Positions 1-58,366 of a stretch of 64,000 nt of DNA are shown one piece after another. The first letter of the stretch is position 1; each line of letters opens with the position of its first letter. A program made the position numbers and the translations under genes. The stretch covers positions 5,630-69,629 of the forward strand of contig JANWIA010000022.1 of NCBI GenBank assembly GCA_025450105.1. The letters run 5' to 3'. The notes below the pieces were generated by a model. That model had not been told where the DNA came from. It saw only the letters and a program-made list of their open reading frames with translations, and did no database searches. This DNA comes from Candidatus Doudnabacteria bacterium. GTDB taxonomy: Bacteria; Patescibacteriota; Doudnabacteria; UBA920; O2-02-FULL-48-8.

Positions 1-521
1 TCATTGCGACAAAACTACCAGAAGAACCAAGCACTTTTAAGCAGGAACTGCAAAACTTGAACCGCGACCAAATTATGTTAGCCTTTTCCCTGGACGGTGA
101 CTTTGTTTTGCCAAAGAACGAAAAAATTCCTCTAGTCTTCATTGCCGGGGGTATAGGCATCACACCATTCCGAAGCATGATTAAATATTTAATCGACAAC
201 AACCAGAAACGGGACATTGTCCTCTTTTATTCCAACAAGGATTTTGATGAAGTTGGCTTTACCGAACTTCTGGATGAAGCTGAGGAAAAAATCGGTTTGA
301 AAACCGTTTACGTTCTAACGGGCAAAAAACCAGCGAATTGGACAGGCCGCACCGGATTCCTTAATTCCAAAATTATTTCCGAGGACGTGTCGAATTACGA
401 AAATCGCCTGTTCTATTTATCTGGGCCAGATCCAATGGTCCGGGCATACGAAAAAATGCTCAAAGATATGGGCATAAACCGAAATCAAATCATGACCGAT
501 TACTTCCCAGGCTATGAGTAA
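1..521 (+). CDS. Partial (3-prime end) oxidoreductase FAD/NAD(P)-binding domain protein (ferredoxin-NADP reductase-like); ORF is open to the window edge
   Basis: No stop upstream in frame from base 3; GGIGITPF nucleotide-binding motif; C-terminal NAD-binding fold pattern (VLFYSNKD, YLSGP). Confidence 0.6.
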   Translation, partial: IATKLPEEPSTFKQELQNLNRDQIMLAFSLDGDFVLPKNEKIPLVFIAGGIGITPFRSMIKYLIDNNQKRDIVLFYSNKDFDEVGFTELLDEAEEKIGLKTVYVLTGKKPANWTGRTGFLNSKIISEDVSNYENRLFYLSGPDPMVRAYEKMLKDMGINRNQIMTDYFPGYE

Positions 522-2975: not shown

Positions 2976-4115
2976 TCAGGTTTTGCTTACTGCGCGGGCG
3001 ATGGTTTTTGCGACTCTCTTATCGAATATGCTTGGGATTATATTGTTTGGATCCGATTTTTTTATTAGCCCGGATAAAGCTTTGGCCGCCGCCATGTACA
3101 TTTTGTCGCTAATCTGGTACTTATTGGCGTCAAGTAATCCCCGGAAAAATCCCGGAAAAACCAAAACGTTGTTTATTTGATTAGCAAAATCGCTGCGGCC
3201 CGTAGCCACAATTTTGGCTCCGGCACGGCGTGCGACATCCGGTAAAATTTCCGGAATCGGGTTGGATAAAGCAAAAATAATCGGATCGACTGCCATTCTC
3301 TTAACCATTTTTTCATTAACAATATTTGGTTTGCTGACACCAATAAAAACGTCGGCGCCGGTCATTGCTGTAACCAAATCTCCTTGCAAATTTTTCCTAT
3401 TGCTTATTGCTGCCAAATTTTTCTTGGCTGGGGATAAATTCTTCCTATTTTTAGAAATTATTCCTTCTGTATCTAAAATTAACAAATTACGAGCACCAGC
3501 TGCCTTTAAAAGTTTGGCCACAGCTGTGCCAGCTGCACCAGCCCCATTAATAACAATCCGGGCCTTAGAAATATTTTTCTTAACAACCTTCAAAGAATTA
3601 TTAAGCGCCGCCAAAACTACAATAGCCGTTCCGTGCTGGTCATCGTGGAAAACAGGAATCTTTAATTTTTTTCTTAGTTCCGACTCAATGTAAAAACAAC
3701 GCGGCGCGGAAATATCTTCTAAATTAATTCCGCCAAAGGTTGGCGCAATTGCTTCCACGGCTTTGATTATTTCTTCCGGATCCTGCGTGTTCAAAACAAT
3801 CGGCACGGCATCAATATTGGCAAACTCTTTAAACAAAACTGCTTTACCTTCCATGACAGGCATAGCGGCGAGTGGGCCAATGTTGCCCAAGCCAAGAACG
3901 GCCGAACCATCCGAAACCACGGCAATCATATTCTGTTTTGCTGTTAAACTTTGAGCCAATTTAGGATTCTTGGCTATAGCTAAAGAAACAGCCCCAACAC
4001 CTGGCGTGTAAGCCAGACTGAGCTGTTTCTTGTTTTTAACCGGCATTTTGGTGACAACGGCAAATTTACCGCGGTTTTTTTTATGCAGGCTGATTGATTG
4101 GGAGGCAATAGACAT
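2976..4115 (-). CDS. NAD(P)-dependent malic enzyme, short form (YtsJ/MaeB-like); start chosen at [17 protein letters not shown]
   Basis: LHKKNRGK...LSLAYTPGV N-terminus and two Rossmann GxGxxG blocks typical of small malic enzymes; ATG overlaps mscL stop (TAATG). Confidence 0.85.
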   Translation of the reverse strand: MSIASQSISLHKKNRGKFAVVTKMPVKNKKQLSLAYTPGVGAVSLAIAKNPKLAQSLTAKQNMIAVVSDGSAVLGLGNIGPLAAMPVMEGKAVLFKEFANIDAVPIVLNTQDPEEIIKAVEAIAPTFGGINLEDISAPRCFYIESELRKKLKIPVFHDDQHGTAIVVLAALNNSLKVVKKNISKARIVINGAGAAGTAVAKLLKAAGARNLLILDTEGIISKNRKNLSPAKKNLAAISNRKNLQGDLVTAMTGADVFIGVSKPNIVNEKMVKRMAVDPIIFALSNPIPEILPDVARRAGAKIVATGRSDFANQINNVLVFPGFFRGLLDANKYQISDKMYMAAAKALSGLIKKSDPNNIIPSIFDKRVAKTIARAVSKT

Positions 4116-4540
4116 TAGGAGAGTTGCGAGGTGCAGGCTGGGCAACGAACTGCAGCCAACGCAATTTCAGTTTTACAAAATGGACAGACTTGCTTATCAG
4201 GCGGAGGTGGTTGATGCTTGAGTTTGTTAATTTGGCGGACCATCAAGAAAACAACAAATGCGACAATTAAAAAGTTTAAAATTTCGTTTATAAATAATCC
4301 GTAATTCAGAGTTGGGGCACCGGCGGCTCGGGCTTCAGCTAAAGTATTAAAGTGTCCCCCGGCCAAACTGACAAATAAATTTGAAAAATCGACACTACCG
4401 GCCAGTAAGCCAATTGGCGGCAAAATAATGTCATTAACCAAGGACGTGACAATTTTCCCGAATGCAGCGCCAATAATCACGCCAACTGCAAGGTCAAAAG
4501 CATTTCCTTTTATTGCGAATTCTTTAAAATCTTTTAGCAT
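4115..4540 (-). CDS. mscL: Large-conductance mechanosensitive channel MscL with C-terminal Pro-rich linker and CxxC..CxxC zinc-ribbon tail
   Basis: [44 protein letters not shown] is near-canonical MscL; tail [33 protein letters not shown]. Confidence 0.85.
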
Positions 4541-4633
4541 AATAACATCATAACCTACCCAAATTGCTTTGGCAATTTGCTTTATTATTTTACAAGCATA
4601 CAATTACTACAACACCTTCCACGGAGGAAAGCG

Positions 4634-5125
4634 ATGGAAGAATACGATTCTCTTCTTGCCGTGACACAACGAAGCGCAGTCCAGTTCTTTTACGACCACC
4701 TACTGGACCTAGCTCCTGACGCATCGAAAAATGAAAAACTTTACAACGCATCGGTTCTGGCACACAGTGCAAGCACTTCTGTGTGTTCCACTGAGCACTT
4801 CCCAAGCACCATCCCCAACCTCAAAGTTTTTTTTGATCGATTTGTCTTGGACAGAAGCGAGCACCACGATCCCGAACTTTTCGAAGCTGCTGGGGCGCAG
4901 TGCTTAGTCCTGACTGGGTTCTTTGCCCGACAGATGCGGCACAACCACAACCTTGAGTGGTACGCGTCATTAGGCAAAGGATTCTTCAAGAGGTCAGCTG
5001 ATTACGGCACTGACCCGGCAAGAGTCCGGATGATGACGGTGATGGCAAGCGAGTTCGGTTACTGGCAACAAAAGTACCGCATACTCAGTCGTAAGATTCG
5101 CGAGTCGCCCTATCTGTTGCACTAA
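4634..5125 (+). CDS. Hypothetical protein (high-GC island gene; start at MEEYDSLL with GGAGGA SD at 4623-4628)
   Basis: Long ORF, strong SD, local GC clearly above flanks; no recognisable motif. Confidence 0.4.
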   Translation: MEEYDSLLAVTQRSAVQFFYDHLLDLAPDASKNEKLYNASVLAHSASTSVCSTEHFPSTIPNLKVFFDRFVLDRSEHHDPELFEAAGAQCLVLTGFFARQMRHNHNLEWYASLGKGFFKRSADYGTDPARVRMMTVMASEFGYWQQKYRILSRKIRESPYLLH

Positions 5126-5175
5126 AAGAAAAAGGACTTGGAAACCACAGTGGTTTTCCAAGTCCTTTTGCGTTT

Positions 5176-5481
5176 TCACGCCGACTTACGTCTCGATTGG
5201 ATTTTCTCCTGAACCTTCGCAACTTCCTCAAACGTGATTGTCCTGCTGAAGCTGTAAAAATTAGAGCCTTGCTTCTTCGTCAGCACCAAGAAGGTGTAGC
5301 TAGCGCGGGCAACCACCCGTTCACACTTTCCTTGATCACTGACCTCAATAATCCTGTACTCGATGCCGTCAGTGACCAATTCTGTAAACTCCAGAAACAA
5401 AGTCGAGACTTCGGCGCCGTCGTCCTTCGACAACATTTCCAGAATCGCTTCCGTCTCCGAGACGGTAATCTTTAATTTCAC
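5176..5481 (-). CDS. Hypothetical protein (high-GC island gene, GTG start preceded by AAGGAGG)
   Basis: ORF plus SD; no recognisable motif. Confidence 0.4.
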   Translation of the reverse strand: MKLKITVSETEAILEMLSKDDGAEVSTLFLEFTELVTDGIEYRIIEVSDQGKCERVVARASYTFLVLTKKQGSNFYSFSRTITFEEVAKVQEKIQSRRKSA

Positions 5482-5578
5482 GCATCCTCCTTAACAGGAT
5501 CTAAGTATACCTATTTAGTCATAAAAACAGAAGACCCCGATCGCATTGTGCGTTCGGGGTCCTTCAGTTGTTGAACTA

Positions 5579-5719
5579 TCAGACCTTGCGGTTTGCCGCC
5601 TGTCTGGATTTGTCCTCCTGTTTCTGTTTAGGCCGTCGTACGATACCCGAGCGGTGGTCCTTCCGCTTCGGATGTTCCGAAACCTTCAAGCGCAGGTCGG
5701 TTTCGTGATTGCTGCACAT
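5579..5719 (-). CDS. Small basic peptide, about 46 aa (MCSNHETDLRLKVSEHPKRKDHRSGIVRRPKQKQEDKSRQAANRKV); absent from the ORF track
   Basis: ATG with GGAGA SD 6 nt upstream; stop followed by hairpin (gaccccga...tcggggtc) plus T-run on the minus strand at 5521-5561. Confidence 0.3.
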   Translation of the reverse strand: MCSNHETDLRLKVSEHPKRKDHRSGIVRRPKQKQEDKSRQAANRKV

Positions 5720-5729
5720 CGGATGTCTC

Positions 5730-6026
5730 CTAACTGGCCGCGGCTATGTGTTCGGGTACGTGCGCCAATTCTTCCGGGACTTCATAAATTTTCACGTACG
5801 CGATTTTCAGGGTCTGGTTTTTCCCAATACTGATTTCCATCGAGACCCAAGGGTACTGAGGCCCGTAAGCATTCTTCAGTTCCTCAATGTCCTCGGTGAC
5901 CATACAGCCTTTGAGGACTGTTGAAAGTTCGTGAGCCTTGAGATCGCAGCTAGTGAGGTTGAAAAAAGGAACCACACCCAACTGCAGCAGGAACCTACCA
6001 GCTTCAACTGCGGGTGTGACGTCCAC
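5730..6026 (-). CDS. Hypothetical protein (high-GC island gene, GTG start with AGGAGG SD)
   Basis: ORF plus SD. Confidence 0.4.
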   Translation of the reverse strand: MDVTPAVEAGRFLLQLGVVPFFNLTSCDLKAHELSTVLKGCMVTEDIEELKNAYGPQYPWVSMEISIGKNQTLKIAYVKIYEVPEELAHVPEHIAAAS

Positions 6027-6200
6027 TCATCCTCCTGACTTGGTACAAATTTCGAGAGACAAAGCTTGTCTATCGAAGTTTAGATCAAGTATCCACAACC
6101 GAGGAATTTTAGCAGCTAATTAATTGGTCGTCAACGCTTCTGCCTGTGTATGAAGTAGGGTCCGCGTTTCGCCAATTTGGCTAAACGCGGACTTGTCTGG

Positions 6201-6551
6201 CTACACACCAGACTTGCGCACCAGTGAACCGGCGTATCCTTCGTTGGTAGATCTGGGCGGAATCTCGGTGTTCAGGGATTCCAGCCAAACCTTCCTTCTT
6301 CGGAACCAACCTTCATGTCCGGCGATCACGGTCATGTGCCGCTGGATGGCAGCTTTGACCGCATCGGTTTGTGGGTGGAGCCTTGCCTTTTTGATCTTCT
6401 TGGCAAGACGTTGGCCTTCGGCCGTACGCGGTTCATCCAACGCTGACAGCCTCGGATGTACTGTGTCCTGTGAATCGGAATCGCTTGTTTCGGCTGATGA
6501 ATCGTTAGCCTCCACATCAGCGGGAAGATCAAACGGGTCGACACTATTCAT
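6201..6551 (-). CDS. Hypothetical protein with acidic N-terminus and basic C-terminus (high-GC island gene)
   Basis: ATG at 6551 preceded by AAGGAGG; ORF of 116 aa. Confidence 0.45.
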   Translation of the reverse strand: MNSVDPFDLPADVEANDSSAETSDSDSQDTVHPRLSALDEPRTAEGQRLAKKIKKARLHPQTDAVKAAIQRHMTVIAGHEGWFRRRKVWLESLNTEIPPRSTNEGYAGSLVRKSGV

Positions 6552-6584
6552 CCTATCCTCCTTGTGAACTGCTTGGTCCGGGAC

Positions 6585-6610
6585 AAAAAAAGACCGACTT
6601 AGTGTCGGCT
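6585..6610 (-). terminator. Rho-independent terminator downstream of parB
   Basis: Stem gaccgac/gtcggct with a 7-nt T-run on the minus strand. Confidence 0.5.
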
Positions 6611-6737
6611 TTCAGTTGCAAAAATCTACAATGAAAATCAGCCGACTGGAGTCGTGTGAATAAAAAACCACTTGCAAATGAGATGTCGTACTGAATTCAT
6701 AAATAATAGCTTATGCTAAGAAAAAACCTCTGTCAAA

Positions 6738-7691
6738 TTAATCGATCTGCGAAACCTTGTCCATAAAACTGTTCAGCTCTTCGTCGGAATAAAATTCAAT
6801 CATAATCTTGCCGCTGTGCCCGGATTTTTGGATGCGAACCTTAGTCCCCAATTTTCCGCGCAATTGGTTTTCCAATGCCTGAATTTGTGGATCAGAACTT
6901 GGCGCATTGCGCGGGGCCTTGGTCACGCGCGGTCGATCCATAATTTCGCGGACGCGGTCTTCCACTTGCCGCACAGTCATGTTCTGATTAATCACTTCCT
7001 CCAACATTGCCAATTGTTTTTCCATTCCCGGCAAAGAAACTAAGGGCCTTGCATGGCCTTCGGAAATTGTCCCTTCGGCCACGGCGCGCTGAATTTTAAG
7101 AGGTAGTGTCAGCAAGCGCAACATGTTCGTAACCGTAGTGCGGGCCTTGCCGACTTTTCGGGATACTTCTTCTTGCGTCAACTTATACTGGTCAATCAAT
7201 TGCTGATAGGCTTGGGCTTCTTCGATTGGATCCAAGTTGTGGCGCTGAATATTTTCAATCAACGCCAATTCCAATTTCTGCTGCTCTTCCATCGCGTCAC
7301 GGATAATAACCGGGACCATGGTCAGGCCCGCTAATTGCGAGGCGCGCATGCGGCGTTCCCCGACAATCAACTGGTAAGTCCCATCCGGTTGCGGCACGAC
7401 CACCAGCGGCTGCAAAATACCGTGCTCCTTAATCGAACTCGCCAATTCCTTTAAATATTCTTCCTTAAAAATCTTTCTTGGCTGCCAAGGATTTGGTTTA
7501 ATCTTTTCAATAGGAATTTGGGTGAACGTGCTGCCCTGTGGCGGTTGGTGGGAGTGGTGTGGAGTGGGCATAGAAACTTTTGGCGCTGGTGGAATTTTTG
7601 GTTGCGAAAAATCACTGCCAATCTCTTCGCCATTCATTGTTAAGCCCATTCCGGAAAAATTGTTTAAATTGTGGTTTGTTTCATCTGCCAT
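6738..7691 (-). CDS. parB: ParB/Spo0J family partition protein with low-complexity N-terminal extension
   Basis: LIVGERRMRAS box, HTH region (LTQEEVSRKVGKARTTVTNMLRLL); no parA adjacent. Confidence 0.8.
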   Translation of the reverse strand: MADETNHNLNNFSGMGLTMNGEEIGSDFSQPKIPPAPKVSMPTPHHSHQPPQGSTFTQIPIEKIKPNPWQPRKIFKEEYLKELASSIKEHGILQPLVVVPQPDGTYQLIVGERRMRASQLAGLTMVPVIIRDAMEEQQKLELALIENIQRHNLDPIEEAQAYQQLIDQYKLTQEEVSRKVGKARTTVTNMLRLLTLPLKIQRAVAEGTISEGHARPLVSLPGMEKQLAMLEEVINQNMTVRQVEDRVREIMDRPRVTKAPRNAPSSDPQIQALENQLRGKLGTKVRIQKSGHSGKIMIEFYSDEELNSFMDKVSQID

Positions 7692-7765
7692 AAAAATCTA
7701 AAGAAATACTACCAGAAATTTAGTCTTTGGACAAACAAAAAAGACCTTGACGGTCAGTTTTTTAT

Positions 7766-7851
7766 TGGTGCCGAAGGAGGGAGTCGAACCCTCATGAGGA
7801 AACCCCGCACGATTTTGAGTCGTGTGCGTCTGCCAGTTCCGCCACTTCGGC
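7766..7851 (-). tRNA. tRNA-Leu (anticodon CAA), class II with long variable arm, CCA encoded
   Basis: Cloverleaf folded by hand: 7-bp acceptor stem GCCGAAG/CTTCGGC, anticodon loop CTCAAAA, T-loop TTCGACT, 14-nt variable arm. Confidence 0.9.
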
Positions 7852-7899
7852 ATATGTTTGCAACTCATTTTACCTCAAAACCGTGATTTTGAAAAGCCC

Positions 7900-8670
7900 C
7901 TAAACAATCAAGAACCAGAAAGCTATCGCAACAATAATTCTATACCATCCAAATGCTGTGAATTTATGGGTATTGATGAACCGTAATAAAAACTTGATCC
8001 CCAAAATTGCCGTAATAAATGAAACAAATAATCCTGTCAGCAAAATCGAGACTGAACCGCTCAAAATGTCCTGATAACTTTTGATTAGGTCGAGTCCGGT
8101 TGCCGCGGCCATTGTTGGCACGGCCAGCAAAAAAGAAAACTCAACGATGGTTCGGCGATTAATTCCTAACATTAATCCGCCGATAATTGTTGCGGCCGCG
8201 CGGGAAACTCCGGGAATAATTGCGATAGCCTGAAACAATCCAATAATAAACGCCTGCTTGCCTGTAATCTGATCCATTGAATTGCCACCGGACAATGGTT
8301 CCTTGTAGGATCGTTCAAAGAGAATCAAAAAAATACCTCCGATCAGGAGAGACACGACCACGGTCATTTCCGAGCCCAATAATACTTCCTTGATAGTCGA
8401 ATAAAAAATTAAACCAATTGCCGCAGTTGGCAAAAATGCGACTAAAAGTTTTTTTATTAGCTGCCAGTTAAGGATCAAACTTCGGCCATACAAAAACAGT
8501 ACTGCCAAAATTGCACCGAACTGAATTGCAATCTCAAAAGTTTTTACGAAATTATTTTGGTTCAAGCCCAAAGCGTTCGTGGCCAAAATTAAGTGCCCGG
8601 TTGATGATACGGGCAAAAATTCGGTTATACCTTCTATAATTCCTAAAATAATCGCTTGAAGAAAGCTCAT
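7900..8670 (-). CDS. uppP: Undecaprenyl-diphosphatase (BacA/UppP)
   Basis: N-terminus ILGIIEGITEFLPVSSTGHLIL is the UppP signature; 8 TM helices. Confidence 0.9.
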   Translation of the reverse strand: MSFLQAIILGIIEGITEFLPVSSTGHLILATNALGLNQNNFVKTFEIAIQFGAILAVLFLYGRSLILNWQLIKKLLVAFLPTAAIGLIFYSTIKEVLLGSEMTVVVSLLIGGIFLILFERSYKEPLSGGNSMDQITGKQAFIIGLFQAIAIIPGVSRAAATIIGGLMLGINRRTIVEFSFLLAVPTMAAATGLDLIKSYQDILSGSVSILLTGLFVSFITAILGIKFLLRFINTHKFTAFGWYRIIVAIAFWFLIV

Positions 8671-8673
8671 GGT

Positions 8674-9909
8674 TTATAGTCCTGGTGCTGGAAAATTCTT
8701 TGTGAACCGCTTAACTTCTTCTTTGACCTGTTCCGCAACTGAATGATCGGTAATAACTGCAGCAATCCAAGAAGCAATTTTGCTCATTTCTTTTTCCTTC
8801 ATGCCCCGGCTCGTCACAGCTGCTGTACCCAACCGCAAACCGGATGGGTCCATTGGGCTTCGCTTATCAAACGGAATCATGTTGCGATTCAAAATTATCC
8901 CGGCTTTTTCCAAAAGGTTTTGGGCGTCCTTGCCACCAATATTTTTTCCGGTTAAATCCATAAGAATCAAATGATTGTCGGATCCGCCGGAAACTAAGCG
9001 GAAACCAAAATCCTGCAGCGCTTTGGACAAGGCTTTTGAATTTTTGACAACTTGTTCTGAATATTTTCGGAAGGCCGCGGTCTTGGCTTCCTTCATTGCT
9101 ACGGCAATTCCAGCAATAGCGTTTTCGTGCGGACCACCCTGCGATCCCGGAAAAACCGATTTATCAATCGCGGTTGCGTATTTGTCCTTGCACATGATAA
9201 TGCCGGCGCGAGGGCCGCGCAAAGTTTTATGGGTCGTGGTTGTGACGACATCGAAAAATGGAATCGGTGACATATGCACGCCAGCCGAAACCAATCCAGC
9301 AATGTGGGAAATATCAGCCATGGCAATGGCCCCGACCTTATCGGCAATGTCGCGAAATTTTTCAAAATCAATTTCCCGAGGATATGCAGTGAAGCCGGAT
9401 AAAATTAATTTTGGTCGGTGCTGATCAGCCAACTTTAAAATTTCCATGTAATCCAACCGTTCAGACTTGGCAGTCACGCCGTAATGGACGAAGTTATAGA
9501 GTTTGCCGGAAACATTTACTTTAGAGCCGTGGGTTAAGTGGCCGCCGTGGGCCAAATCGAGGGCCATAATCGTGTCACCCGGCTCGAGCAAAGCATTATA
9601 GACTTCCAGATTCATCGGACTGCCGGAATAGGGCTGGACGTTAACGTGCCAGTCGATCGGCAAATCAAAAGCCTCGCGGGTGCGGGCAATGGCCAGTTCC
9701 TCAACCTGATCAACAATTTCGTTGCCGGCATAGTAACGTTTACGGGGATAGCCTTCGGCATATTTATTATTCAAAACCGAACCCAGCGCCTCCAAAACTT
9801 CTTTCGAGGTATAATTTTCTGATGCAATCAATTCCAAAACCTCCGCTTGGCGCTTGCGTTCTTTTTGGATGAGATCGTAAACTTGTTTGTCGTTATTCTT
9901 TAAACTCAT
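8674..9909 (-). CDS. glyA: Serine hydroxymethyltransferase
   Basis: Full-length SHMT similarity (ELIASENYTS, PLP-lysine region THKTLRGPR). Confidence 0.95.
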   Translation of the reverse strand: MSLKNNDKQVYDLIQKERKRQAEVLELIASENYTSKEVLEALGSVLNNKYAEGYPRKRYYAGNEIVDQVEELAIARTREAFDLPIDWHVNVQPYSGSPMNLEVYNALLEPGDTIMALDLAHGGHLTHGSKVNVSGKLYNFVHYGVTAKSERLDYMEILKLADQHRPKLILSGFTAYPREIDFEKFRDIADKVGAIAMADISHIAGLVSAGVHMSPIPFFDVVTTTTHKTLRGPRAGIIMCKDKYATAIDKSVFPGSQGGPHENAIAGIAVAMKEAKTAAFRKYSEQVVKNSKALSKALQDFGFRLVSGGSDNHLILMDLTGKNIGGKDAQNLLEKAGIILNRNMIPFDKRSPMDPSGLRLGTAAVTSRGMKEKEMSKIASWIAAVITDHSVAEQVKEEVKRFTKNFPAPGL

Positions 9910-11091: not shown

Positions 11092-11703
11092 TTATTTTAG
11101 TGCGGTGCGGATAGTTTCAATACTTATTGGACCTTCGCGCAAGACCGCAACCTTATGGTCATTGATTGCAACAATGGTCGATGGTTTGACCTGTTTGAGC
11201 TTACCGCCGTTTAAATAGTAATCGGGCTTGAGTTTACTTTTCTTAAATTGAGCGCGGATGGCCTTTACAGTATAACAGGTTACGCGACCAGAACGGTTCG
11301 CAGATGTCGCGGTGATTGGCCGGCCCAGGGTTTTGACAATATGCTTAACCACTTTGTGGTCAGGCATTCGGAATCCCAGCGTCCCGCTGCCCGACGACAA
11401 CTGTTTCCATGTCCCAGAATTTTTCTTTAGCGGCAATACAATTGTAATCGGCCCAGGGAAAAGTTTTTGGATAATTTTCTTAGCCGGCGCATTCAATTTC
11501 ACCACGCGATTCAGTTCCACAAATGATGGAAAAATTACATGCACTGGTTTGTTAAAATTCCTCCCCTTAACTTCATACAATCTTTTAACGGCAATGGGAT
11601 TGGTCGCATCAACCGCCAATCCATAAGCGGTATCGGTTGGATAAACCACAACCCCGCCATTCCTAATTGTTTCAACAGCTTTTGATATTTGTTCGGATGT
11701 CAT
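11092..11703 (-). CDS. tsaC: L-threonylcarbamoyladenylate synthase (TsaC/YrdC/Sua5 family)
   Basis: GGVVVYPTDTAYGLAVDATN and VKGRNFNKP motifs. Confidence 0.8.
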   Translation of the reverse strand: MTSEQISKAVETIRNGGVVVYPTDTAYGLAVDATNPIAVKRLYEVKGRNFNKPVHVIFPSFVELNRVVKLNAPAKKIIQKLFPGPITIVLPLKKNSGTWKQLSSGSGTLGFRMPDHKVVKHIVKTLGRPITATSANRSGRVTCYTVKAIRAQFKKSKLKPDYYLNGGKLKQVKPSTIVAINDHKVAVLREGPISIETIRTALK

Positions 11704-14054
11704 TATTCTTTCACAACAAAATTGATTAATCGGTTAGGCACAAAAATTTCTTTCACAATCTGCTTACCTTCCAAATATTTCTTCGTTGATTCATTACTCA
11801 TGACAGCAGCACGAACCTCATCCTGCGATGCATCAAATTTAACCATAATGGTTCCTCTGGTCTTGCCCAAAATCTGAACCACGAATTCAATTTCTGAATC
11901 TTTGACCATAGCCGCGTCAAAAACCGGCCAGGCTTGCTGATGAATCGAATCATTATGACCAAGGTTGTGCCAAAGTTCTTCAGTAATGTGGGGCGCGAAT
12001 GGCGCAAGCAATTTGAGCAAAGTTTCCAAGTCAGATTGATTAATCTTGCTGTTCTCATTCAAAAATTCCATGAATGCCGCAATAGATGTATTAAATTTGA
12101 ACGACTCAATATCGCTGCTAATTTTTTTAACGAGCTTATGAATATTTTTTCCACTTTGGACTTGAGGGTCGATTTGCAAAGCACTTAATCGATCCAAGAA
12201 TCTTCGAACCCCAACAACCCCTTGATCATTCCAAGACACAGTTGCATCATGTGGGCCTAAAAACATTTCGAACATTCTCAAAGTGTCGGCGCCGTGACTG
12301 GCAACAATATCGTCCGGATTGACCACGTTGCCGAGGCTCTTGCTCATTTTTTCGCCGTCTGGACCTAATATAATTCCATGAGGCACGCGCTTTAAATATG
12401 GTTCCGAAACCGTAACGTGGCCTTGGTCGAACAAAAATTGGTTCCAAAATCTAGAATAAAGTAAATGCAAAGTGGTATGTTCCATGCCGCCAAAATAAAC
12501 GTCAACTGGCTGCCAACGCTGCAATTTTTGTTTGGCCGCGAATTCTTTTACATTCTGAGGATCGGCATATCGCAAAAAATACCAGGAACTTCCTGCCCAT
12601 TGCGGCATGGTATTGGTTTCGCGTTTGGCCGGGCCTTGGCACTTTGGGCAAGTTGTATTGACCCACGATTCAATTGCCGCCAGGGGCGATTCGCCGGTGC
12701 CGGTTGGCTCGTATTTTTCGACTTCCGGTAAAACTACAGGCAATTGGTCTTCTGGAATTGGGACAATACCGCAATTTGGGCAGTGCACTAAAGGAATTGG
12801 TTCGCCCCAATAACGTTGACGGGAAAAAACCCAGTCGCGCAATTTGTATTGAACCTTGGGTAATCCAAAATCCGCGGTAATGTGCTGGCGCGCTTCATCT
12901 GTTGGCATGTAACTGTATTCACCGGAATTGACCAGTTTGCCTTCACCGGTAAACGGTTCTTCATCCGATTCTTTTTCCGGAGCTACGACTTTTTTGATAG
13001 GCAATTTATATTTTTTGGCAAAAGCAAAATCCCGATCATCGTGCGCCGGAACGGCCATGACCGCACCGGTGCCGTAGTTGGCCAAAACGTAATCAGCAAT
13101 CCAAACTGGGATTTTTTCTTCAGTTGCCGGATTGATTGCGAACGCACCAGTAAAGACTCCAGTTTTTTCTTTATCAACCGAAGTTCGTTCTTTTTCGGAT
13201 TTTGAACCAGCCCATGTCACATATTTTTCAACTTCTGCTTTTTGGTCCGCAGTAGTAATTTCTTTAACTAAAGGATGTTCCGGCGCCAAAACCATGTAAG
13301 TTGCGCCAAATAAAGTGTCCGGGCGGGTGGTAAAAACCTCAATTGATTTTCCACCAACAGGAAATTTGAGCAACGCCCCGTCGGATCGGCCAATCCAATT
13401 CTTTTGCTGCAACTTAACTGCTTCCGGCCAATCTAAACTTTCCAAACCGTCAATTAATTTTTGCGCATAAGCGGTAATGCGCAAATACCATTGGCGCATC
13501 TCGCGTTTTTCAACTTCAGTGCCGCAGCGTTCACACTTACCATCAACGACCTCTTCGTTGGCCAGCCCAGTTTTGTCTTTTGGGCACCAGTTAATCAAGC
13601 CTGTGGCTTCAAACGCCAAACCGACTTTATAGAATTGTAAAAAAATCCACTGCGTCCATTTATAATATTCCGGATCAGTTGTGTTTATTTCGCGCGACCA
13701 ATCAAAACTCATACCCCAACTTTGCAATTGGCGTTTAGAATTGGCAACGTTTTCCATTGTTGAAACTTTTGGCTGGACTCCGGTCTTGATGGCAAAATTT
13801 TCCGCCGGCAAACCAAAGGCATCCCACCCAATAGGATACAAAACTTCATGGCCGCGCATGCGCCAATACCTACTATATGTATCGCCCGCCGTATACGGTC
13901 GCAAGTGGCCCATATGCAAACCTGTTCCTGATGGATAAGGGAATTCAATCAAGACATATTTTTTTGGCTTATCAGAGCCATCGTCGGCCTTATAAATTGA
14001 CTTCTGCTGCCAAAATTCCTGCCATTTTTTTTCAATTTGCTTGTGGTCAAACAT
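11703..14054 (-). CDS. leuS: Leucyl-tRNA synthetase
   Basis: HMGH and KMSKS class I motifs; 783 aa; full-length LeuS similarity. Confidence 0.95.
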   Translation of the reverse strand: MFDHKQIEKKWQEFWQQKSIYKADDGSDKPKKYVLIEFPYPSGTGLHMGHLRPYTAGDTYSRYWRMRGHEVLYPIGWDAFGLPAENFAIKTGVQPKVSTMENVANSKRQLQSWGMSFDWSREINTTDPEYYKWTQWIFLQFYKVGLAFEATGLINWCPKDKTGLANEEVVDGKCERCGTEVEKREMRQWYLRITAYAQKLIDGLESLDWPEAVKLQQKNWIGRSDGALLKFPVGGKSIEVFTTRPDTLFGATYMVLAPEHPLVKEITTADQKAEVEKYVTWAGSKSEKERTSVDKEKTGVFTGAFAINPATEEKIPVWIADYVLANYGTGAVMAVPAHDDRDFAFAKKYKLPIKKVVAPEKESDEEPFTGEGKLVNSGEYSYMPTDEARQHITADFGLPKVQYKLRDWVFSRQRYWGEPIPLVHCPNCGIVPIPEDQLPVVLPEVEKYEPTGTGESPLAAIESWVNTTCPKCQGPAKRETNTMPQWAGSSWYFLRYADPQNVKEFAAKQKLQRWQPVDVYFGGMEHTTLHLLYSRFWNQFLFDQGHVTVSEPYLKRVPHGIILGPDGEKMSKSLGNVVNPDDIVASHGADTLRMFEMFLGPHDATVSWNDQGVVGVRRFLDRLSALQIDPQVQSGKNIHKLVKKISSDIESFKFNTSIAAFMEFLNENSKINQSDLETLLKLLAPFAPHITEELWHNLGHNDSIHQQAWPVFDAAMVKDSEIEFVVQILGKTRGTIMVKFDASQDEVRAAVMSNESTKKYLEGKQIVKEIFVPNRLINFVVKE

Positions 14055-14110: not shown

Positions 14111-14554
14111 ATGAACGATCCGATCAGCGGAAATCTCATTCTGGTCGCTGAAAACCTGCTCACTGAATACCGCAGGAAGTTGAATTATTTCTTGCATCAC
14201 CATCCAGAGGTCAGTGGGAAATGCTACGAAGCTGCTCCAAACCGTCGTTTAGCTGTAAGGGTCGAGACGTCTGATCTGCCACTCATCCGGGCTGAGCAAA
14301 AAACATCTAACGAGTTCGAGGCGGTCTACATTGCGCTCCTCGAGGTTGCAAAGACTGACAGGGAGTGCAATGCCGCCATGCACGCTTGGCACAAAATCCC
14401 GCCTGGAGAGTATCGCAAAGCGAACCTGATCATCACCATCGTCGATCCCAATCGACCAGTCACGTCCCAGGGGCTTTCTCCTACGGACATGCGCTTCCTG
14501 AAGTCTCTACGCATCAGCGGTGACGGACTCACTGAACCGACAAATCCCACCTAG
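14111..14554 (+). CDS. Hypothetical protein (isolated high-GC insert; ATG at 14111 with AGGAGG SD at 14101-14106)
   Basis: ORF plus strong SD; GC above flanks; no motif. Confidence 0.4.
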   Translation: MNDPISGNLILVAENLLTEYRRKLNYFLHHHPEVSGKCYEAAPNRRLAVRVETSDLPLIRAEQKTSNEFEAVYIALLEVAKTDRECNAAMHAWHKIPPGEYRKANLIITIVDPNRPVTSQGLSPTDMRFLKSLRISGDGLTEPTNPT

Positions 14555-15393: not shown

Positions 15394-16827
15394 CTAATCG
15401 ATTTTTGGGAACAGTGGTTCAGCTTTTATAATATTTTCGTTTTCAAAAGTTTTTCGGATCTTGTCTGCAGTATCGGGCAGGACCGGTGACAATTTTTGCG
15501 CGATATCATAAAGCAAAGCCGCTAAATTGTTCAGCAACTCCTTAACCTTATCTGGATCGGTTTTGACCAAATCCCAAGGTTTGGCCTTATCAATCAATTG
15601 GTTGGCCCAGGCAATTGCTTCCCAAATTTCGGTTAGGCCCGTGGAAAAATCCAAGTTTCGGAACGCTTCCAGCGCGTCGGACAAATCTTTTGGTGAACTA
15701 ATGTATTCCGCATCTCCATCCAAAAATTTCTCAATCATGTTAGTTGTCCGGGAAAATAAATTTCCCAATCCATTTGCGAGATCACCGTTGTAGCGAGCTT
15801 TAAGTTTTTCTTCACTGACGTCGCCATCCTGACCAAACGGCACTTCACGCAGCAAAAAGTACCGGACAGCATCCGGAGTGTATTTACTGGCCCATTCTAA
15901 TGGATCAATGGCATTACCCAAAGACTTACTGATTTTCTGTCCACCAGATGTAAAAAATCCATGGGCAAAAACGGTTTGCGGCAATTTTTCGCCAATCGCC
16001 AACAGCACCGCTGGCCAAATGACACAGTGAAATTTAATAATGTCCTTGCCGATCACATGAATATCCGCCGGCCAAAAACGTTCATACTTTTCCTGATCTG
16101 CACCGTAACCAACAGCAGAGCAATAATTAAACAATTCATCCAACCAAACGTAAATGGTTTGTGATTCGTCCCAAGGCAAAGGTAGGGCAAACTTTGCCGT
16201 GCGGCGGGAAACAGCAATATCTTCCAAACCTTGTTTAATGAACGATAAAATTTCGTTGCGGCGGGACTGCGGCAAAATGTGTAATTCCCCGCTCTCAATT
16301 TTTTCTGTTAAAATTTTTCCGTATTCCGACAATTTGAAAAACCAATTTTTTTCTTTAATCCATTCCGGTTTGCGGTTATGCAACGGACACAAACCGTTAA
16401 CTAAGTCTTCTTCCTTCTTAAAAGATTCGCAACCAATACAATACCAGCCTTCATAATCGGCTTCGTATAATTTTCCGGAAGCTTTTAGTTTTTCAAAAAA
16501 TAATTTTACGGCATCGGTGTGACGTTTTTCTGTGGTCCGGATAAAATCATCCGGCGCGATATTTAAAGTATCCCAGGCCAAAGAAAACTTGGCGGAATTT
16601 TCATCCACAAAATCTTCAACTTTTTTGCCGGCCTTTTCCGCACTCTCGGCAATCTTGCTGCCGTGCTCGGCCGTGCCGGTCAAAAACAAAACGTCTTTGC
16701 CCAACTGCCTGTGCAAACGCGCCAAAACATCCGCGGCAATAGTTGTGTAGGCCGAACCAATGTGCGGCTTGTCATTGACGTAGTAAATCGGTGTCGTGAT
16801 ATAAAATTTTGTTCGTTCTTCGGTCAT
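15394..16827 (-). CDS. metG: Methionyl-tRNA synthetase (short form)
   Basis: PYYVNDKPHIGSAYT (HIGH-like), KISKS, Zn-knuckle CxxC..CxxH. Confidence 0.95.
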   Translation of the reverse strand: MTEERTKFYITTPIYYVNDKPHIGSAYTTIAADVLARLHRQLGKDVLFLTGTAEHGSKIAESAEKAGKKVEDFVDENSAKFSLAWDTLNIAPDDFIRTTEKRHTDAVKLFFEKLKASGKLYEADYEGWYCIGCESFKKEEDLVNGLCPLHNRKPEWIKEKNWFFKLSEYGKILTEKIESGELHILPQSRRNEILSFIKQGLEDIAVSRRTAKFALPLPWDESQTIYVWLDELFNYCSAVGYGADQEKYERFWPADIHVIGKDIIKFHCVIWPAVLLAIGEKLPQTVFAHGFFTSGGQKISKSLGNAIDPLEWASKYTPDAVRYFLLREVPFGQDGDVSEEKLKARYNGDLANGLGNLFSRTTNMIEKFLDGDAEYISSPKDLSDALEAFRNLDFSTGLTEIWEAIAWANQLIDKAKPWDLVKTDPDKVKELLNNLAALLYDIAQKLSPVLPDTADKIRKTFENENIIKAEPLFPKID

Positions 16828-16962
16828 TTTTGTGTGGAAAAATAAAGAAAACGGCTCAATGGCCGACTCAATTATACCATATTCCTTAAGGTTTTTGTAA
16901 TTTTGCTTGCAATAGTTTTTTTATATATACTCTAGGTAGCAATAACATCAAGGAGGCACTTG

Positions 16963-17334
16963 ATGCCACGCGTTCGAGATACCAGGAAACCTGCTGAACC
17001 CGAGCCGTATATCGATCCGTACACTACTCCGTCCAGACAACGAAGGGGTGAGGTACACATCGGTCAGACGGTCATCGAGATTGGCCACTTTGATCCATCG
17101 CAAGTTATCCCGCTCCTTGATGAAGAAGAGTGTCCGCACCTGAAGGATCTGCGCGCCGACAAAGAACTCGAGGTTGAGTACAGGCCCTCCCGGATCCGCC
17201 TCATCTTCAGCAGAAGCTGCAAGGCCCACAAGCCTGAAGAGGTCTACCACTACCTTCGCGATAACCTGTTCCCCAACTGGAAGGAACAGGACGACGCTGA
17301 ATTTCTCCTCATGCTCGAAGACGTCGCGGCCTAA
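16963..17334 (+). CDS. Hypothetical protein (isolated high-GC insert; ATG at 16963 with AGGAGG SD at 16951-16956)
   Basis: ORF plus strong SD; GC above flanks. Confidence 0.4.
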   Translation: MPRVRDTRKPAEPEPYIDPYTTPSRQRRGEVHIGQTVIEIGHFDPSQVIPLLDEEECPHLKDLRADKELEVEYRPSRIRLIFSRSCKAHKPEEVYHYLRDNLFPNWKEQDDAEFLLMLEDVAA

Positions 17335-22967: not shown

Positions 22968-23339
22968 TCATGTGGTTTTGGAAACTTTGCTTATGGCTTC
23001 TGCCAGAGAGTAGGCACTTGGGATGCCTTCTACCGACTCGTTTGGTTTTGAGGGAATTGCCCCAAATTGAGTCAGAGCAGTTCTCGCCCGGCTCCCGGCT
23101 GGAACGAACCAGCACGATTTGATGTTGTGAGACAGCAACAGCTGATGGCTGCCCACAACATGAGCCATTCCGCCACTATCGAAGCGCGTAACACCGCTGA
23201 GGTCGATAATAGCCATTTTGATGCCAGCTGCAAGAGCGGATTCGATTTCATTCTTGAGGGCATCTTCGGGGTCCAACGACATCATCTCTGAAACAGTGAC
23301 CACCAAGAGGTCATTATGAACGACGGTGCTAATAAGCAA
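22968..23339 (-). CDS. STAS-domain protein (anti-sigma-factor antagonist SpoIIAA-like), high GC, TTG start with AAGGAGG SD
   Basis: IIDLSGVTRFDSGGMAHVV block resembles a STAS phospho-site region. Confidence 0.55.
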   Translation of the reverse strand: MLISTVVHNDLLVVTVSEMMSLDPEDALKNEIESALAAGIKMAIIDLSGVTRFDSGGMAHVVGSHQLLLSHNIKSCWFVPAGSRARTALTQFGAIPSKPNESVEGIPSAYSLAEAISKVSKTT

Positions 23340-24689: not shown

Positions 24690-25124
24690 TCACCATGAAT
24701 GGGATCCCGGGGTCGTGTAGTCGACGCTCGGAAGAAGCTTGGTTCTGGCACGGGCAGATGTCTGCTTGACCTTTAACCGCTTAAATCTTGAACGCTTCAT
24801 CTCCAGCTCGTCAGTCGTGGAGAGATGGTCTCGAAAACAATTCGGACAATTCCCCTCAAAGTAGTAAAATCCATCCTTGGCAGGAGCGGCCCGGAACTCG
24901 TCACTTACGCCCGGGATTAGCTTTGAAAGGTTGAGGGAACTCTTGCATCTCGTGCACTGGAACATCATGTACGGAAAATTGTCGCCGGACTTGCAGTGCG
25001 GACACAAACCGTCCGGATTTTCCATCCGCTCCTTGTTTAAGAACACCAAGCCGCAGTTCTCGCAAAGGTATTCTTGTTCCGGGTCCTTGCAAGCCATCGG
25101 CACTTTTGGCTTCGCCACGATCAC
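24690..25124 (-). CDS. Cys-rich hypothetical protein with four CxxC pairs (tandem zinc-ribbon-like)
   Basis: CENCG, CPHCK, CTRCK, CPNC; high GC; AAGGAGG SD. Confidence 0.45.
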   Translation of the reverse strand: MIVAKPKVPMACKDPEQEYLCENCGLVFLNKERMENPDGLCPHCKSGDNFPYMMFQCTRCKSSLNLSKLIPGVSDEFRAAPAKDGFYYFEGNCPNCFRDHLSTTDELEMKRSRFKRLKVKQTSARARTKLLPSVDYTTPGSHSW

Positions 25125-25220
25125 CTCCTTGATCTTAAACGGGATTATACAGTATGGCCGAAATAAAACAAAACGCCGGGAGGTGAGTACCTACCCGGCG
25201 TTGCGAAAGTTGAAAACGGT

Positions 25221-25673
25221 TTAGAGGAAGCTCGTCCATGCGTAGACGATGGCACCGGCCAAAACTGCTGCCTTGGCGAAATTCTGTAGACGACCCTTGA
25301 GGTTGTCCGCGAAAGTCCTTCTGCGAAGTTCCTCAAGATTGTCAGCCCAGTACCGAACGCAGGCTTGACGACGATCATCCGTCGCCTCGTCCCACGAACT
25401 GTACGCTTCTTCGACCTCGAATTCCGTGATTCCCATGATCCTCGCCACGAACTTGGTCATGTTCTTTCGATTCATTCGCGCCTTGATCTTTTCGATATCG
25501 ATCGGACGATCGAGGATGGTGAATACCATGATCGCCATGGGACAAACGACGTTGCCTCCATTCGGATCGTACCAGTCGCCGTGAGCGAGTTTTTCGGCGG
25601 AAGTCAGCGCGACCAGACAAGCTTCCTGGTGCTCGGCCGCGACGAGTACTGTTGGCACATCTCGCATGTACAT
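25221..25673 (-). CDS. Hypothetical protein (high-GC island)
   Basis: ORF with GGAGGA SD. Confidence 0.4.
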   Translation of the reverse strand: MYMRDVPTVLVAAEHQEACLVALTSAEKLAHGDWYDPNGGNVVCPMAIMVFTILDRPIDIEKIKARMNRKNMTKFVARIMGITEFEVEEAYSSWDEATDDRRQACVRYWADNLEELRRRTFADNLKGRLQNFAKAAVLAGAIVYAWTSFL

Positions 25674-25794
25674 CAGATCCTCCGTTTCTGTTTCAGCCTA
25701 TGCAAGTTAAAGAAATGATACCAACCAGTTTCCTTTCTGGCAAACAAAACCTCTGCCATAAGTCTAACAATGGCAGAGGCCTTCCTCATGACTT

Positions 25795-26310
25795 CTAGAG
25801 CTTCTTGATAGAGGACAGCTTCTCGATCGCAGCGCGCAGCTGTTCCGAGAAGATACCCAATTGTTCCGAAGGAATCTCGTCGTCACCGGGTATGCTGTAG
25901 GGTCGTTTGAACTGGAATTCTCCTTCAAGTGGGAAGGGCAGCACAAACTTAGGTCCAAAATTCGCCACAGGACCCGCGGCTCCGAAGGGATTAGGGCAGA
26001 CTTCCGGATCTCCCATTGCCGTCATCCACAGGACATGAAGCTTGATCCGGAGCATGTAGGTCTTAACTTCGAACTTTTCGATGACCCACGTGCCGGTCTG
26101 TGACCAGATGCGACCTTGGGCAACCACTGGTGAAGGCACTTCGACTTCCATTAATGCACTCTCCAGCATGCCCGTCACGTACTCAATGACCTGCCCGTGA
26201 TGCAGCTTCACCAGGTACTCTTTCACCTTGGGATCATCGTTTCGAATGACCGGATTCACTTCTACCCGGCTTAGTTCTGAAGGCTTGGATTTCTTTTTCC
26301 CCTTTGCCAT
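25795..26310 (-). CDS. Hypothetical protein with Lys-rich N-terminus (high-GC island)
   Basis: ORF with AGGAGG SD. Confidence 0.4.
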   Translation of the reverse strand: MAKGKKKSKPSELSRVEVNPVIRNDDPKVKEYLVKLHHGQVIEYVTGMLESALMEVEVPSPVVAQGRIWSQTGTWVIEKFEVKTYMLRIKLHVLWMTAMGDPEVCPNPFGAAGPVANFGPKFVLPFPLEGEFQFKRPYSIPGDDEIPSEQLGIFSEQLRAAIEKLSSIKKL

Positions 26311-50596: not shown

Positions 50597-50983
50597 ATGA
50601 AACTTCTCGCGTTTTTCCTGCTCTTCGTTCTGAGCTTCACTTACCTCCTGTTGATCCTCATGGGTCGGCACACAAAGAAAGACGGAACAAATCTGGACCT
50701 GCACAAGGGACTGGCCACGTTCACGTGGATAATTGCCAGTATCTATATCCTGGCACTAGAAGCCCACTTCGCGATCGCCGGTGTTGCACGCACACGTGAT
50801 GGATTGTTCTTCGTCCACCTCTACATCTTTGCATTCCCCTGGGTTGCAAGCTATCTGGCAATCCTCGCCTGGCTGACAGGTTCCGGAGGTCGCAAAAGAT
50901 TCCATAGGTTCGCGGCTTACGGCAACGCTGTACTTTACCTCGGCATGGCCGTCACTGGCGGCCTACTCATCTATAGGTGGTAA
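50597..50983 (+). CDS. Hypothetical 4-TM membrane protein (high-GC patch, AGGAGG SD)
   Basis: ORF plus SD plus hydrophobic profile. Confidence 0.4.
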   Translation: MKLLAFFLLFVLSFTYLLLILMGRHTKKDGTNLDLHKGLATFTWIIASIYILALEAHFAIAGVARTRDGLFFVHLYIFAFPWVASYLAILAWLTGSGGRKRFHRFAAYGNAVLYLGMAVTGGLLIYRW

Positions 50984-58354: not shown

Positions 58355-58366
58355 CGATAATTAATT

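Follow-up and report, generated by a model that had tools for sequence, protein, structure and literature searches.

The block at positions 4634–6551 of the 64-kb stretch of DNA analysed here (the window, by which we mean the whole stretch) lies between mscL and parB, and a sequence-only reading had described it as a horizontally acquired island of five or six genes marked by higher GC content and strong Shine-Dalgarno (SD) sequences. We found that the block holds five genes (g1–g5, encoding 163, 101, 46, 98 and 116 aa; Table 1), not six, arranged on two strands as four transcription units (g1, g2, g4-g3 and g5), and that each of them indeed has a strong SD 4–6 nt from its start. Our preferred explanation, which we regard as reasonably likely, is that the block is the composite content of a variable slot, comprising a native regulated end, ORFan units and one import. 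Just outside the block, between parB and g5, we found a conserved element of about 150 nt (6585–6736) that is followed directly by g5. This element is very probably a genuine conserved, structured leader with a translated mini open reading frame (mini-ORF), and we see about even chances that, by analogy with known attenuators, it would work as one that senses aromatic transfer RNAs (tRNAs).

The element was found by aligning the DNA downstream of parB, and was compared between seven lineages (the window, L005, L007, L008, L009, L089 and L090). The order of its parts is identical in all seven: a promoter, the mini-ORF, four short segments (r1–r4), a U-run, and then the SD and ATG of the next gene. 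In L009 the element is 6.5 kb away from parB, where it too immediately precedes a GGAGG-led ORF, and in L089 the same architecture is present with a different sequence. The −35 of the leader promoter, which in the window begins one base after the parB stop codon, aligns together with the −10 in six lineages, while the −35 of L007 reads TAACAA; the −10 of the relatives is TATAAT, TATATT, TATACT or TAGCAT. Since the −10 sits 7 nt before the mini-ORF ATG in the window and 7–9 nt before it across lineages, the leader mRNA would be nearly leaderless. Between the U-run and the first slot gene's SD and ATG lie 15–40 nt. We found no promoter-like site between the leader terminator and g5, and transcription of g5 should therefore depend on read-through. 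Covariance-model scores for the copies of the element ranged from 74 to 108 bits.

In all seven lineages the mini-ORF encodes a peptide of 16–26 aa, within which an aromatic core, FWFYFTD, is conserved (KWFFIH in the window; peptides in Table 1). The distance from the ATG to the TGG codon is 24, 27, 30 or 33 nt and so always in frame, codons vary from lineage to lineage synonymously or in frame (ATT/ATC, TCT/TCA, TTC/TTT and TAT/TAC), and the mini-ORFs of L008 and L007 differ only by synonymous changes or a one-codon insertion or deletion. Because lengths stay in frame and substitutions are synonymous, we consider the mini-ORF to be probably translated.

Segment r1 (ACCGAC) resembles r3 (GCCGAC or CCGGC), and r2 (GTCGGCTG) resembles r4 (GTCGG or GCCGG), so that 1:2, 2:3, 3:4 and 1:4 pairings are all possible. 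The terminator, which in the window is a hairpin at 6609–6592 followed by seven U residues, is present in all seven copies, and its arms covary from CCGAC/GTCGG to CCGGC/GCCGG, an A-to-G change in r3 being matched by a T-to-C change in r4. We analysed the helices copy by copy; MAFFT and model alignments set the terminator arms out of register, so no column-based covariation counts were used. Folding z-scores against shuffled controls were −2.5 to −7.0 for all seven RNAs. The r2:r3 duplex was predicted at −5.7 to −13.8 kcal/mol (−13.9 to −22.2 for the full 2..3 structure), 3:4 alone at −7.1 to −12.1 kcal/mol, and the sum of 1:2 plus 3:4 at −12.4 to −22.2 kcal/mol. The 2:3 and 3:4 pairings are mutually exclusive, with 2:3 about isoenergetic with 1:2 plus 3:4, and the free RNA folds as one long hairpin followed by the U-run.

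The aromatic run ends 0–1 codons before r1 in six of the seven lineages, and four codons before it in the weaker copy of the window. The mini-ORF stops within r2 or shortly past it in the window, L005, L007, L089 and L090; in L008 its stop codon falls between the first two segments, and in L009 it comes 10 nt past r2. To represent a stalled ribosome we masked the covered nucleotides in minimum free energy folds of six copies (L089 excluded). Placing the last aromatic codon in the A site masks r1; in this state 2:3 formed in the window, L008 and L009 and their terminator was lost. When the stop codon occupied the A site, all six copies formed the terminator. We propose that stalling on the Phe/Trp/Tyr codons would leave the ribosome covering no segment but the first, in which case 2:3 would form, segment 4 would stay single-stranded and RNA polymerase would read into g5, and that a ribosome at the stop codon would cover segment 2 and permit the terminator (3:4, or the long 1:4 plus 2:3 hairpin, with the U-run). 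The gene g5 would then be expressed when charged aromatic tRNAs are scarce. Known members of this kind of bacterium depend on a host, and the signal could plausibly be a read-out of host supply. The anatomy, conservation and alternative pairings of the element are observed; ribosome stalling and the aromatic aminoacyl-tRNA signal are what we infer from them.

Several observations speak against an attenuator. The same masking of r1 kept the 3:4 terminator in L090, L005 and L007 in the equilibrium fold, for which reason a switch in these three would have to be kinetic. The window copy has both a degraded −10 and the weaker aromatic run. The genes that would be gated encode tiny proteins of about 64–116 aa rather than enzymes of aromatic amino-acid metabolism, which sets the element apart from all classical attenuators, and conservation of the whole peptide core, not just of codon identity, would also fit a nascent-peptide sensor or a micro-peptide. 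The element might instead be an arrest peptide of the TnaC/SecM type, a parB terminator joined to a micro-protein gene, or a small RNA, all of which together we regard as unlikely. The retention of FWFYFTD as amino acids and the unrelatedness of the downstream genes to aromatic amino-acid metabolism would suit such readings, as would the long hairpin and U-run of the free RNA, which would terminate parB transcripts. However, the T and D of the core are encoded by the ACCGAC of segment 1, so their conservation can be explained by the RNA; the element's own promoter and its exclusive 2:3/3:4 design would be needless for a plain terminator; and the placement of the aromatic run relative to segment 1 is the geometry of stalling-dependent antitermination.

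The closest known parallels are the ribosome-mediated attenuators of amino-acid operons, such as E. coli trpL and pheL (pheL survey, PMC3082878; attenuator diversity, PMC2965389). The element shares with them a short leader ORF in which putative regulatory codons form a run, four RNA segments with a 2:3 antiterminator exclusive with a 3:4 terminator and its U-run, a leader stop codon from which a ribosome finishing translation would cover segment 2, and a position directly 5′ of the regulated gene. It differs in being nearly leaderless, in having no leader SD, in its mixed Phe/Trp/Tyr run, in its host from the candidate phyla radiation (CPR), and in gating hypervariable rather than biosynthetic genes, and it has no sequence or Rfam relationship to Trp_leader or Phe_leader. 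The arrest peptides TnaC, SecM and ErmCL likewise combine a short upstream ORF and conserved amino acids (aromatic W-F ... D) with a regulated gene downstream, but they use Rho sites, SD unmasking or translational attenuation, whereas the element has an intrinsic terminator and an explicit antiterminator. The KWFFIH of the window may resemble the KWFNID of TnaC, which would favour such a peptide.

Apart from tRNAs and noise, Rfam gave no match at E ≤ 1 in window positions 4000–8000, nor at E ≤ 0.5 in L005, L007, L009, L089 and L090. The covariance model found no second copy of the element in the window, the best other match scoring 18 bits (E = 0.07) at 16803–16908. We had considered that every SD-led gene of the window might have its own leader ORF and terminator, and rejected this as only g5 has one. 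Six exact matches in IMG/VR to the 18-mer TGGTTTTAYTTTACCGAC were attributed to chance, with covariance-model scores of at most 15 bits and no structure. We found no paper in the literature searched combining leader peptides, transcription attenuation and the CPR. As far as the literature searched shows, a leader-peptide attenuator would be the first described for this radiation, whose members, including Saccharibacteria, are known mainly from genomes, with almost nothing known of their gene regulation or host sensing. The products it would gate are unusual too, being fast-evolving mini-proteins instead of biosynthetic enzymes. Elsewhere in the window, a 28-aa upstream ORF at 25673–25759 on the minus strand (MAEVLFARKETGWYHFFNLHRLKQKRRI) terminates on the start codon of the gene at 25221–25673, which is SD-led; the GWYHFF of this ORF resembles the FWYHF of the L007 leader, which may be chance.

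Two loose families of mini-proteins, A and B, follow the element in the relatives (Table 1), and neither these families nor g5 has a Pfam match. The leader of several relatives is followed first by a family A gene; the window has none. The first slot ORF is common to L005 and L090 (E = 8e-13), and the APTLE motif to L009 and L090. The N-terminal 45 residues of the 116-aa g5 product are acidic (pI 4.1), and its C-terminal part is basic (pI 11.3). Its residues 32–58 aligned with the N-terminus of family B (hhalign P = 0.0044, HH probability 7.9%, vs P = 0.61 for family A), and g5 and its positional equivalents were each other's top non-self matches at E values of 0.4–1.1 (phmmer and hmmsearch). 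It is plausible on these alignments that g5 diverged from family B and carries an acidic extension at its N-terminus. That g5 is wired to a clade-conserved cis-regulatory leader argues that the parB-proximal end, leader plus g5, is native and regulated rather than cargo. In the more distant L094 (ParB 47% identical) we found non-homologous modules of the same design at 9040–9740, in one of which a Leu-rich mini-ORF (MYLTTYQNLLLLGLLRSALCGMV) is followed by repeats of the r1–r4 type and then an SD-led ORF. A promoter, mini-ORF, terminator and small SD-led ORF with an unrelated leader peptide (MKLRDARISIKVVSAAWAWALSLGKVPLNVV) also occur at 6865–7050 of L009. The design may, judging by these sequences, be common in these bacteria.

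We next consider the slot itself, for which the comparison covered about 130 kb of sequence from relatives, whose taxonomic labels are the names on records of metagenome-assembled genomes (MAGs). The proteins of the locus are singletons at 90% identity. The closest ParB relatives among species-representative genomes and metagenomes are 70–76% identical (70–77% for ParB and GlyA overall); two are named Candidatus Saccharibacteria, one of them being the 797-kb contig of L008, and the next tier is named Patescibacteria. Going by these record names, the host chromosome would be Saccharibacteria-like (Patescibacteria). The parB...mscL synteny is kept in L008 and L090, with gaps of 1.9 and 2.8 kb. 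In neither gap did tblastn or blastn, at permissive thresholds in this small search space, find anything related to g1–g5, and each gap holds its own, unrelated GGAGG-led mini-ORFs. As these lineages keep the synteny yet carry unrelated ORFs, the parB-mscL interval is, on this sequence comparison, a conserved slot with lineage-specific content. The earlier claim of horizontally acquired cargo is supported for g1, a probable import (below), and the closest relatives available do not carry the block at this locus; the claim is not supported for the block as one island, nor for its g5 end with the clade-conserved leader.

The L090 sequence is a metagenome contig (Ga0163151_10003247) whose ParB is 74% identical to that of the window and whose parB-leader-slot-mscL layout is the same. 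Its backbone GC is about 0.62 and its GC at third codon positions (GC3) 0.83–0.89, vs a GC3 of 0.46 in the window, a very large shift in GC within one clade. The slot genes of L090 have a GC3 of 0.75–0.80, lower than the backbone, whereas in GC-poor lineages the GC3 of slot genes is higher than that of the backbone. Genes taken from elsewhere, or from a pool shared across the clade, would account for these opposite shifts better than an intrinsically high GC.

Slots of this kind are reminiscent of genomic islets or hypervariable accessory hot spots, in which core flanks (here parB and mscL) are kept and the content differs per lineage, with ORFans, one clearly transferred gene and deviating composition. 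The present slot differs from these in having no mobility genes, repeats or tRNA target, in having a conserved regulatory leader as one end, and in a deviation that is marked best by the presence or absence of an SD, the sign of the GC difference flipping between GC-poor and GC-rich relatives.

This contrast in translational signals was far sharper than that in GC. The GC of the block is 0.502 vs 0.4447 for the window; in sliding 1918-bp windows (standard deviation 0.028) this is about two standard deviations above the mean, and 3.8% of same-size windows are as GC-rich. The GC difference thus persisted on quantitative analysis, although the ranges first quoted for it (50–55% vs 40–45%) were slightly generous. 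The 2 kb to the left have a GC of 0.415 and the 2 kb to the right 0.444, and the GC of the block genes is 0.484–0.553 (GC3 0.56–0.68). The GC of parB is 0.481, making the step on that side small, and comparably GC-rich stretches occur at about 24–26 kb and at 43–49 kb, the latter inside a 1845-aa ORF. Anti-SD duplex energies were −7.3 to −12.1 kcal/mol for g1–g5, vs +0.4 for parB, +1.7 for glyA, +2.0 for leuS, −5.1 for pnp and −2.1 for cyoA. Backbone starts, of which those of parB and glyA were fixed by alignment of homologues from residue 1, are preceded by A/T-rich sequence with no SD, which bears out the claim that the backbone has essentially none.

Of 63 GGAGG sites in the window, 15 sit 3–10 nt before a codon that starts an ORF of 98 aa or more, and because this compares with a 7% background (binomial P = 2e-5), the association of SDs with starts is not chance. 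The 64 called genes of the window fall into two classes. The 13 SD-led genes have a median length of 128 aa and mean GC at the three codon positions (GC1/2/3) of 0.55/0.39/0.61, vs 272 aa and 0.48/0.36/0.46 for the other 51 (Mann-Whitney P of about 1e-7 for GC3 and 5e-6 for length). Besides g1–g5, the class includes eight genes (Table 1) that are interspersed with SD-less housekeeping genes, and it recurs at six or more further sites of the window; three of the eight, at 24690–26310, form a second cluster resembling the block. A Pfam domain above threshold was found in one of 12 scanned SD-led genes (STAS, at 22968) vs all 20 sampled backbone genes, and we detected no paralogy among the SD-led proteins of the window. 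The backbone genes of five relatives likewise have no SD, with small GGAGG-led ORFs interspersed, and in L090 the long genes are SD-less too, despite their high GC3. Since small, GC3-rich, SD-led, family-less genes are spread over the whole 64 kb, the contrast is that of a genome-wide gene class rather than of one discrete island. The defining property of the class is the SD, not higher GC, because the slot genes of L090 have a lower GC3 than their backbone; the higher GC is real but secondary. Bacteria with mostly SD-less genes are known, for example among the Bacteroidetes. These share the A/T-rich, SD-less backbone leaders and the small minority of genes with strong SDs, but the SD-led minority here consists of small, family-less accessory genes, not particular housekeeping genes. 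The window contains no rRNA from which the anti-SD could be read.

Within this class, g1 is the gene that we regard as an import. It is a divergent member of a family of all-alpha proteins of about 170 aa that has no name, with 88 relatives (E values down to 1.8e-51, 40–58% identity, about 165–180 aa), none of which has a Pfam domain. The alignments are full length, with 93–100% query coverage for most matches, and contain 26 invariant columns, including the motifs (L)LYNASVLAH, FVxD and CLxLxGFFxxQ. From these alignments g1 belongs to a real conserved family, to which no family match assigns a function. Two relatives come from Vicinamibacterales MAG records (P0024 and P0073). The six loci of relatives that were examined as DNA have 63–72% GC (GC3 of the genes 0.79–0.94) and Acidobacteriota-like neighbours (LptE, ferrochelatase and ECF sigma factors), the neighbourhood itself not being conserved. 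With 50% GC and a GC3 of 0.57, in a Patescibacteria backbone, g1 departs from the other members of the family (63–71% GC). Because its relatives otherwise occur in GC-rich contigs of Acidobacteriota type, g1 was probably acquired horizontally from a GC-rich lineage and has, by its GC3, partly ameliorated. Neighbour joining placed g1 on a long branch as the sister of one of the two subfamilies.

None of the five products matched a family in Pfam, PHROG, NCBIfam or PADLOC, in keeping with the claim that none is recognisable. An exhaustive HMMER search of 1.84 billion representative proteins (of about 15 billion), with g2, g4 and g5 concatenated as the query, recovered the three self matches and no others; g2, g4 and g5 are thus ORFans by this search. 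The g3 product is the basic 46-aa peptide that the sequence-only reading had picked out, and is indeed very basic; its exact sequence is absent from the protein collection, the homology searches not having covered this peptide in a useful way. The g4 product had no match in the PDB and has a candidate lipobox, L-T-S-C, at residues 24–27. The start of g3 lies 10 nt downstream of g4, with the g3 SD inside the 3′ end of g4, and this g4-g3 unit ends at a terminator 3′ of g3 rather than of g4. The promoter-like site 5′ of g4, a consensus match only, agrees at 10 of 12 consensus positions and has the TG of an extended −10. We picture g4-g3 and g2 as self-contained ORFan units, which would each have their own strong SD and hairpin terminator, g1 on the opposite strand as the putative import, and all five genes as members of the proposed genome-wide class of small SD-led genes in an SD-independent backbone.

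Against this composite account, g1 is only sister to a subfamily on a long branch, not nested inside one, and g2–g4, which on this account would be gains, may instead be products of very fast native evolution. The strongest competitor is that the small SD-led genes, g2–g5 included, are native, vertically inherited, extremely fast-evolving and perhaps exchanged within the clade as an SD-dependent class, which we think rather unlikely. The retention of slot and leader in seven lineages fits it, as do the first slot ORF and APTLE motif shared between relatives, the faint resemblance of g5 to its positional equivalents, the lack of a donor among representatives of some 15 billion proteins, and the lower slot GC3 in L090 and higher slot GC3 in GC-poor lineages, which is the pattern of a shared pool. 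It is countered by g1, which clearly comes from another phylum-level pool, by the raised GC1 and GC2, which suggest long residence in GC-richer genomes, and by the homology of g5, which is not significant by database standards. A bolder extension, which we offer as speculation and consider improbable, is that the SD-led mini-genes are a fast-diversifying clade-pool set with SD-dependent translation in a cell that otherwise initiates without the SD, of which the set at parB is gated by a leaderless FWFYF leader sensing host aromatic supply. If true, the leader would be a gate that senses nutrients and controls hypervariable proteins serving host interaction or dormancy.

That the whole 1.9 kb is a single acquired island, perhaps a mobile element integrated near tRNA-Leu and parB, seems to us quite improbable. 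GC is raised over the entire block, all of its genes have donor-like SDs, the block is missing in relatives, and g1 is demonstrably foreign, but we found no integrase, att-like repeat or tRNA fragment, and parB cuts the tRNA off from the block. The four transcription units on two strands, the recurrence of the gene class elsewhere in the window and the attachment of g5 to a clade-conserved leader also count against a single insertion. The integration context that had been suggested was not supported: no repeat of at least 12 nt brackets the block, and no 11-mer of tRNA-Leu occurs in 4000–7000. Nor did phage or plasmid origin find support, as tblastn gave no match in phages or plasmids for g2, g4 or g5, nor in plasmids for g1, and IMG/VR gave none with the g1 profile or the ORFan scans. 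Integron cassettes were dropped, since the hairpins after g1/g2, g3 and the mini-ORF carry terminator-type U-runs and there is no integrase among the five products, no formal attC scan having been made. Still less probable is that g2–g5 are chance ORFs in GC-richer non-coding or decaying foreign DNA. Purifying selection cannot be shown for genes with no homologues, and an antisense ORF of 124 aa that overlaps g5 has a similar GC3; on the other side stand the canonical SD at 4–6 nt on every ORF, the window-wide association of SDs with starts, the terminators directly after ORFs, and a GC3 exceeding overall GC in all four genes. Least probable of all, and by a sequence-only reading once a candidate, is a toxin-antitoxin or anti-phage defence module. 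The sole match was PF07704 (E = 0.063, below its cut-off), PADLOC defence models gave no match for the five proteins at E ≤ 1, no signature was found in Pfam or NCBIfam, and a hairpin and a promoter, rather than a partner gene, come after g5.

Some of these findings matter beyond this locus. The split between an SD-less backbone and SD-led small genes could serve as a marker for accessory or regulated genes in these genomes and bears on the expression of foreign genes in hosts that do not use the SD, and gene prediction trained on backbone genes may overlook SD-led genes or give them wrong starts. Annotation is also affected at the level of taxonomy, several public MAG contigs with this synteny bearing the names of unrelated phyla. 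L005, L006 and L007 are labelled Verrucomicrobiia, Acidobacteriaceae and Binatia, and their ParB and GlyA are 72–76% identical to those of the window. These three share the Saccharibacteria-type glyA-(uppP)-parB synteny, part of the order n203-MFS-glyA-uppP-parB (L006 including uppP and MFS, L005 only parB and the leader), and are probably mis-binned.

Table 1. Positions of the genes and signals discussed, in window coordinates unless a relative is named
Feature	Position	Strand	Description
g1	4634–5125	+	163 aa; GGAGGA, 5 nt, ATG
g2	5176–5481	−	101 aa; AGGAGG, 4 nt, GTG; ORFan
g3	5579–5719	−	46 aa; AGGAGA, 6 nt, ATG; isoelectric point (pI) 10.7
g4	5730–6026	−	98 aa; AGGAGG, 4 nt, GTG; acidic ORFan
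g5	6201–6551	−	116 aa; AGGAGG, 5 nt, ATG
Hairpin terminator, bidirectional, g1/g2 convergent	5124–5175		21-nt arms, 90% complementary; A-run on one side, T-run on the other
Intrinsic terminator after g3	5524–5565	−	GACCCCGA...TCGGGGTC then TTCTGTTTTTAT; read from sequence
Promoter-like site 5′ of g4	6106–6134	−	TTGACG, 17 nt, TG-TAAAAT
Imperfect long hairpin over g5 stop codon	6145–6207		31-nt arms, 74% complementary; no T-run
Leader promoter	6708–6736	−	−35 TTGACA 6736–6731; −10 TAAGCT 6713–6708
Attenuator (putative)	6585–6700	−	mini-ORF 6700–6638 (MNSVRHLICKWFFIHTTPVG, stop), r1 6656–6650, r2 6647–6639, r3 6612–6601, r4 6599–6593, U-run 6591–6585
Mini-ORF peptide	window		MNSVRHLICKWFFIHTTPVG
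Mini-ORF peptide	L008		MKSVISQNHFWFYFTD
Mini-ORF peptide	L090		MKSEKLTVQFWFYFTDPQVG
Mini-ORF peptide	L005		MKLAHRNFWFYFTDYMAG
Mini-ORF peptide	L007		MKSVISQNFWYHFTDTRVG
Mini-ORF peptide	L009		MSKRQVNTNSFWFYFTDRSRVF
Mini-ORF peptide	L089		MQIKSASNIFWFYYFYRFRTAEMVLR
Family A	L090 1049–1246, L005 4473–4688, L009 13529–13744, perhaps L008 11330		64–71 aa, Cys-containing; motif CC...APTLEGLG...C in L090, L005 and L009 (65–71 aa)
Family B	L008 11836, L007 8376, L090 1243, L005 6235		about 63–86 aa, basic, helical
Further SD-led genes (n = 8)	14111–14554, 16960–17334, 22968–23339, 24690–26310 (starts 24690, 25221, 25795), 50597–50983, 60509–60895		canonical AAGGAGG
mscL	4115–4603	−	ORF; TTG at 4603
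parB	6738–7691		neighbour on the g5 side
tRNA-Leu(CAA)	7766–7851		far side of parB from the block

The flanking genes also include uppP and glyA. There is no parA gene adjacent to parB, and a search for the parS consensus TGTTNCACGTGAAACA with up to three mismatches gave no match near parB and a single match in the window, at 60571, which is at chance level. On the other side of the block, alignment with the mscL of L008 puts the probable true start of mscL at the ATG of position 4540 instead of the TTG of position 4603; the C-terminus of its product carries a CPxC...CPxC zinc-ribbon tail that is also present in the mscL of L008. In the 93-bp divergent region between mscL and g1, an 8-bp perfect inverted repeat, CAAATTGC-TTTG-GCAATTTG, at 4560–4579 could, from its sequence, be an operator or a hairpin. 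The ORF at 644–2920 on the minus strand encodes a PAS-PAS-GGDEF-EAL signalling protein, which is kept beside mscL in L008 and L090; its identification as leuS was rejected, leuS being at 11703–14054. Finally, the window contains a second kind of compositional outlier, AT-rich genes with a GC of 0.35–0.39, well below the backbone, at 29189–29755, 53719–54294, 57734–58990 and 61123–61536, the first of which encodes an Mrr-type restriction endonuclease.

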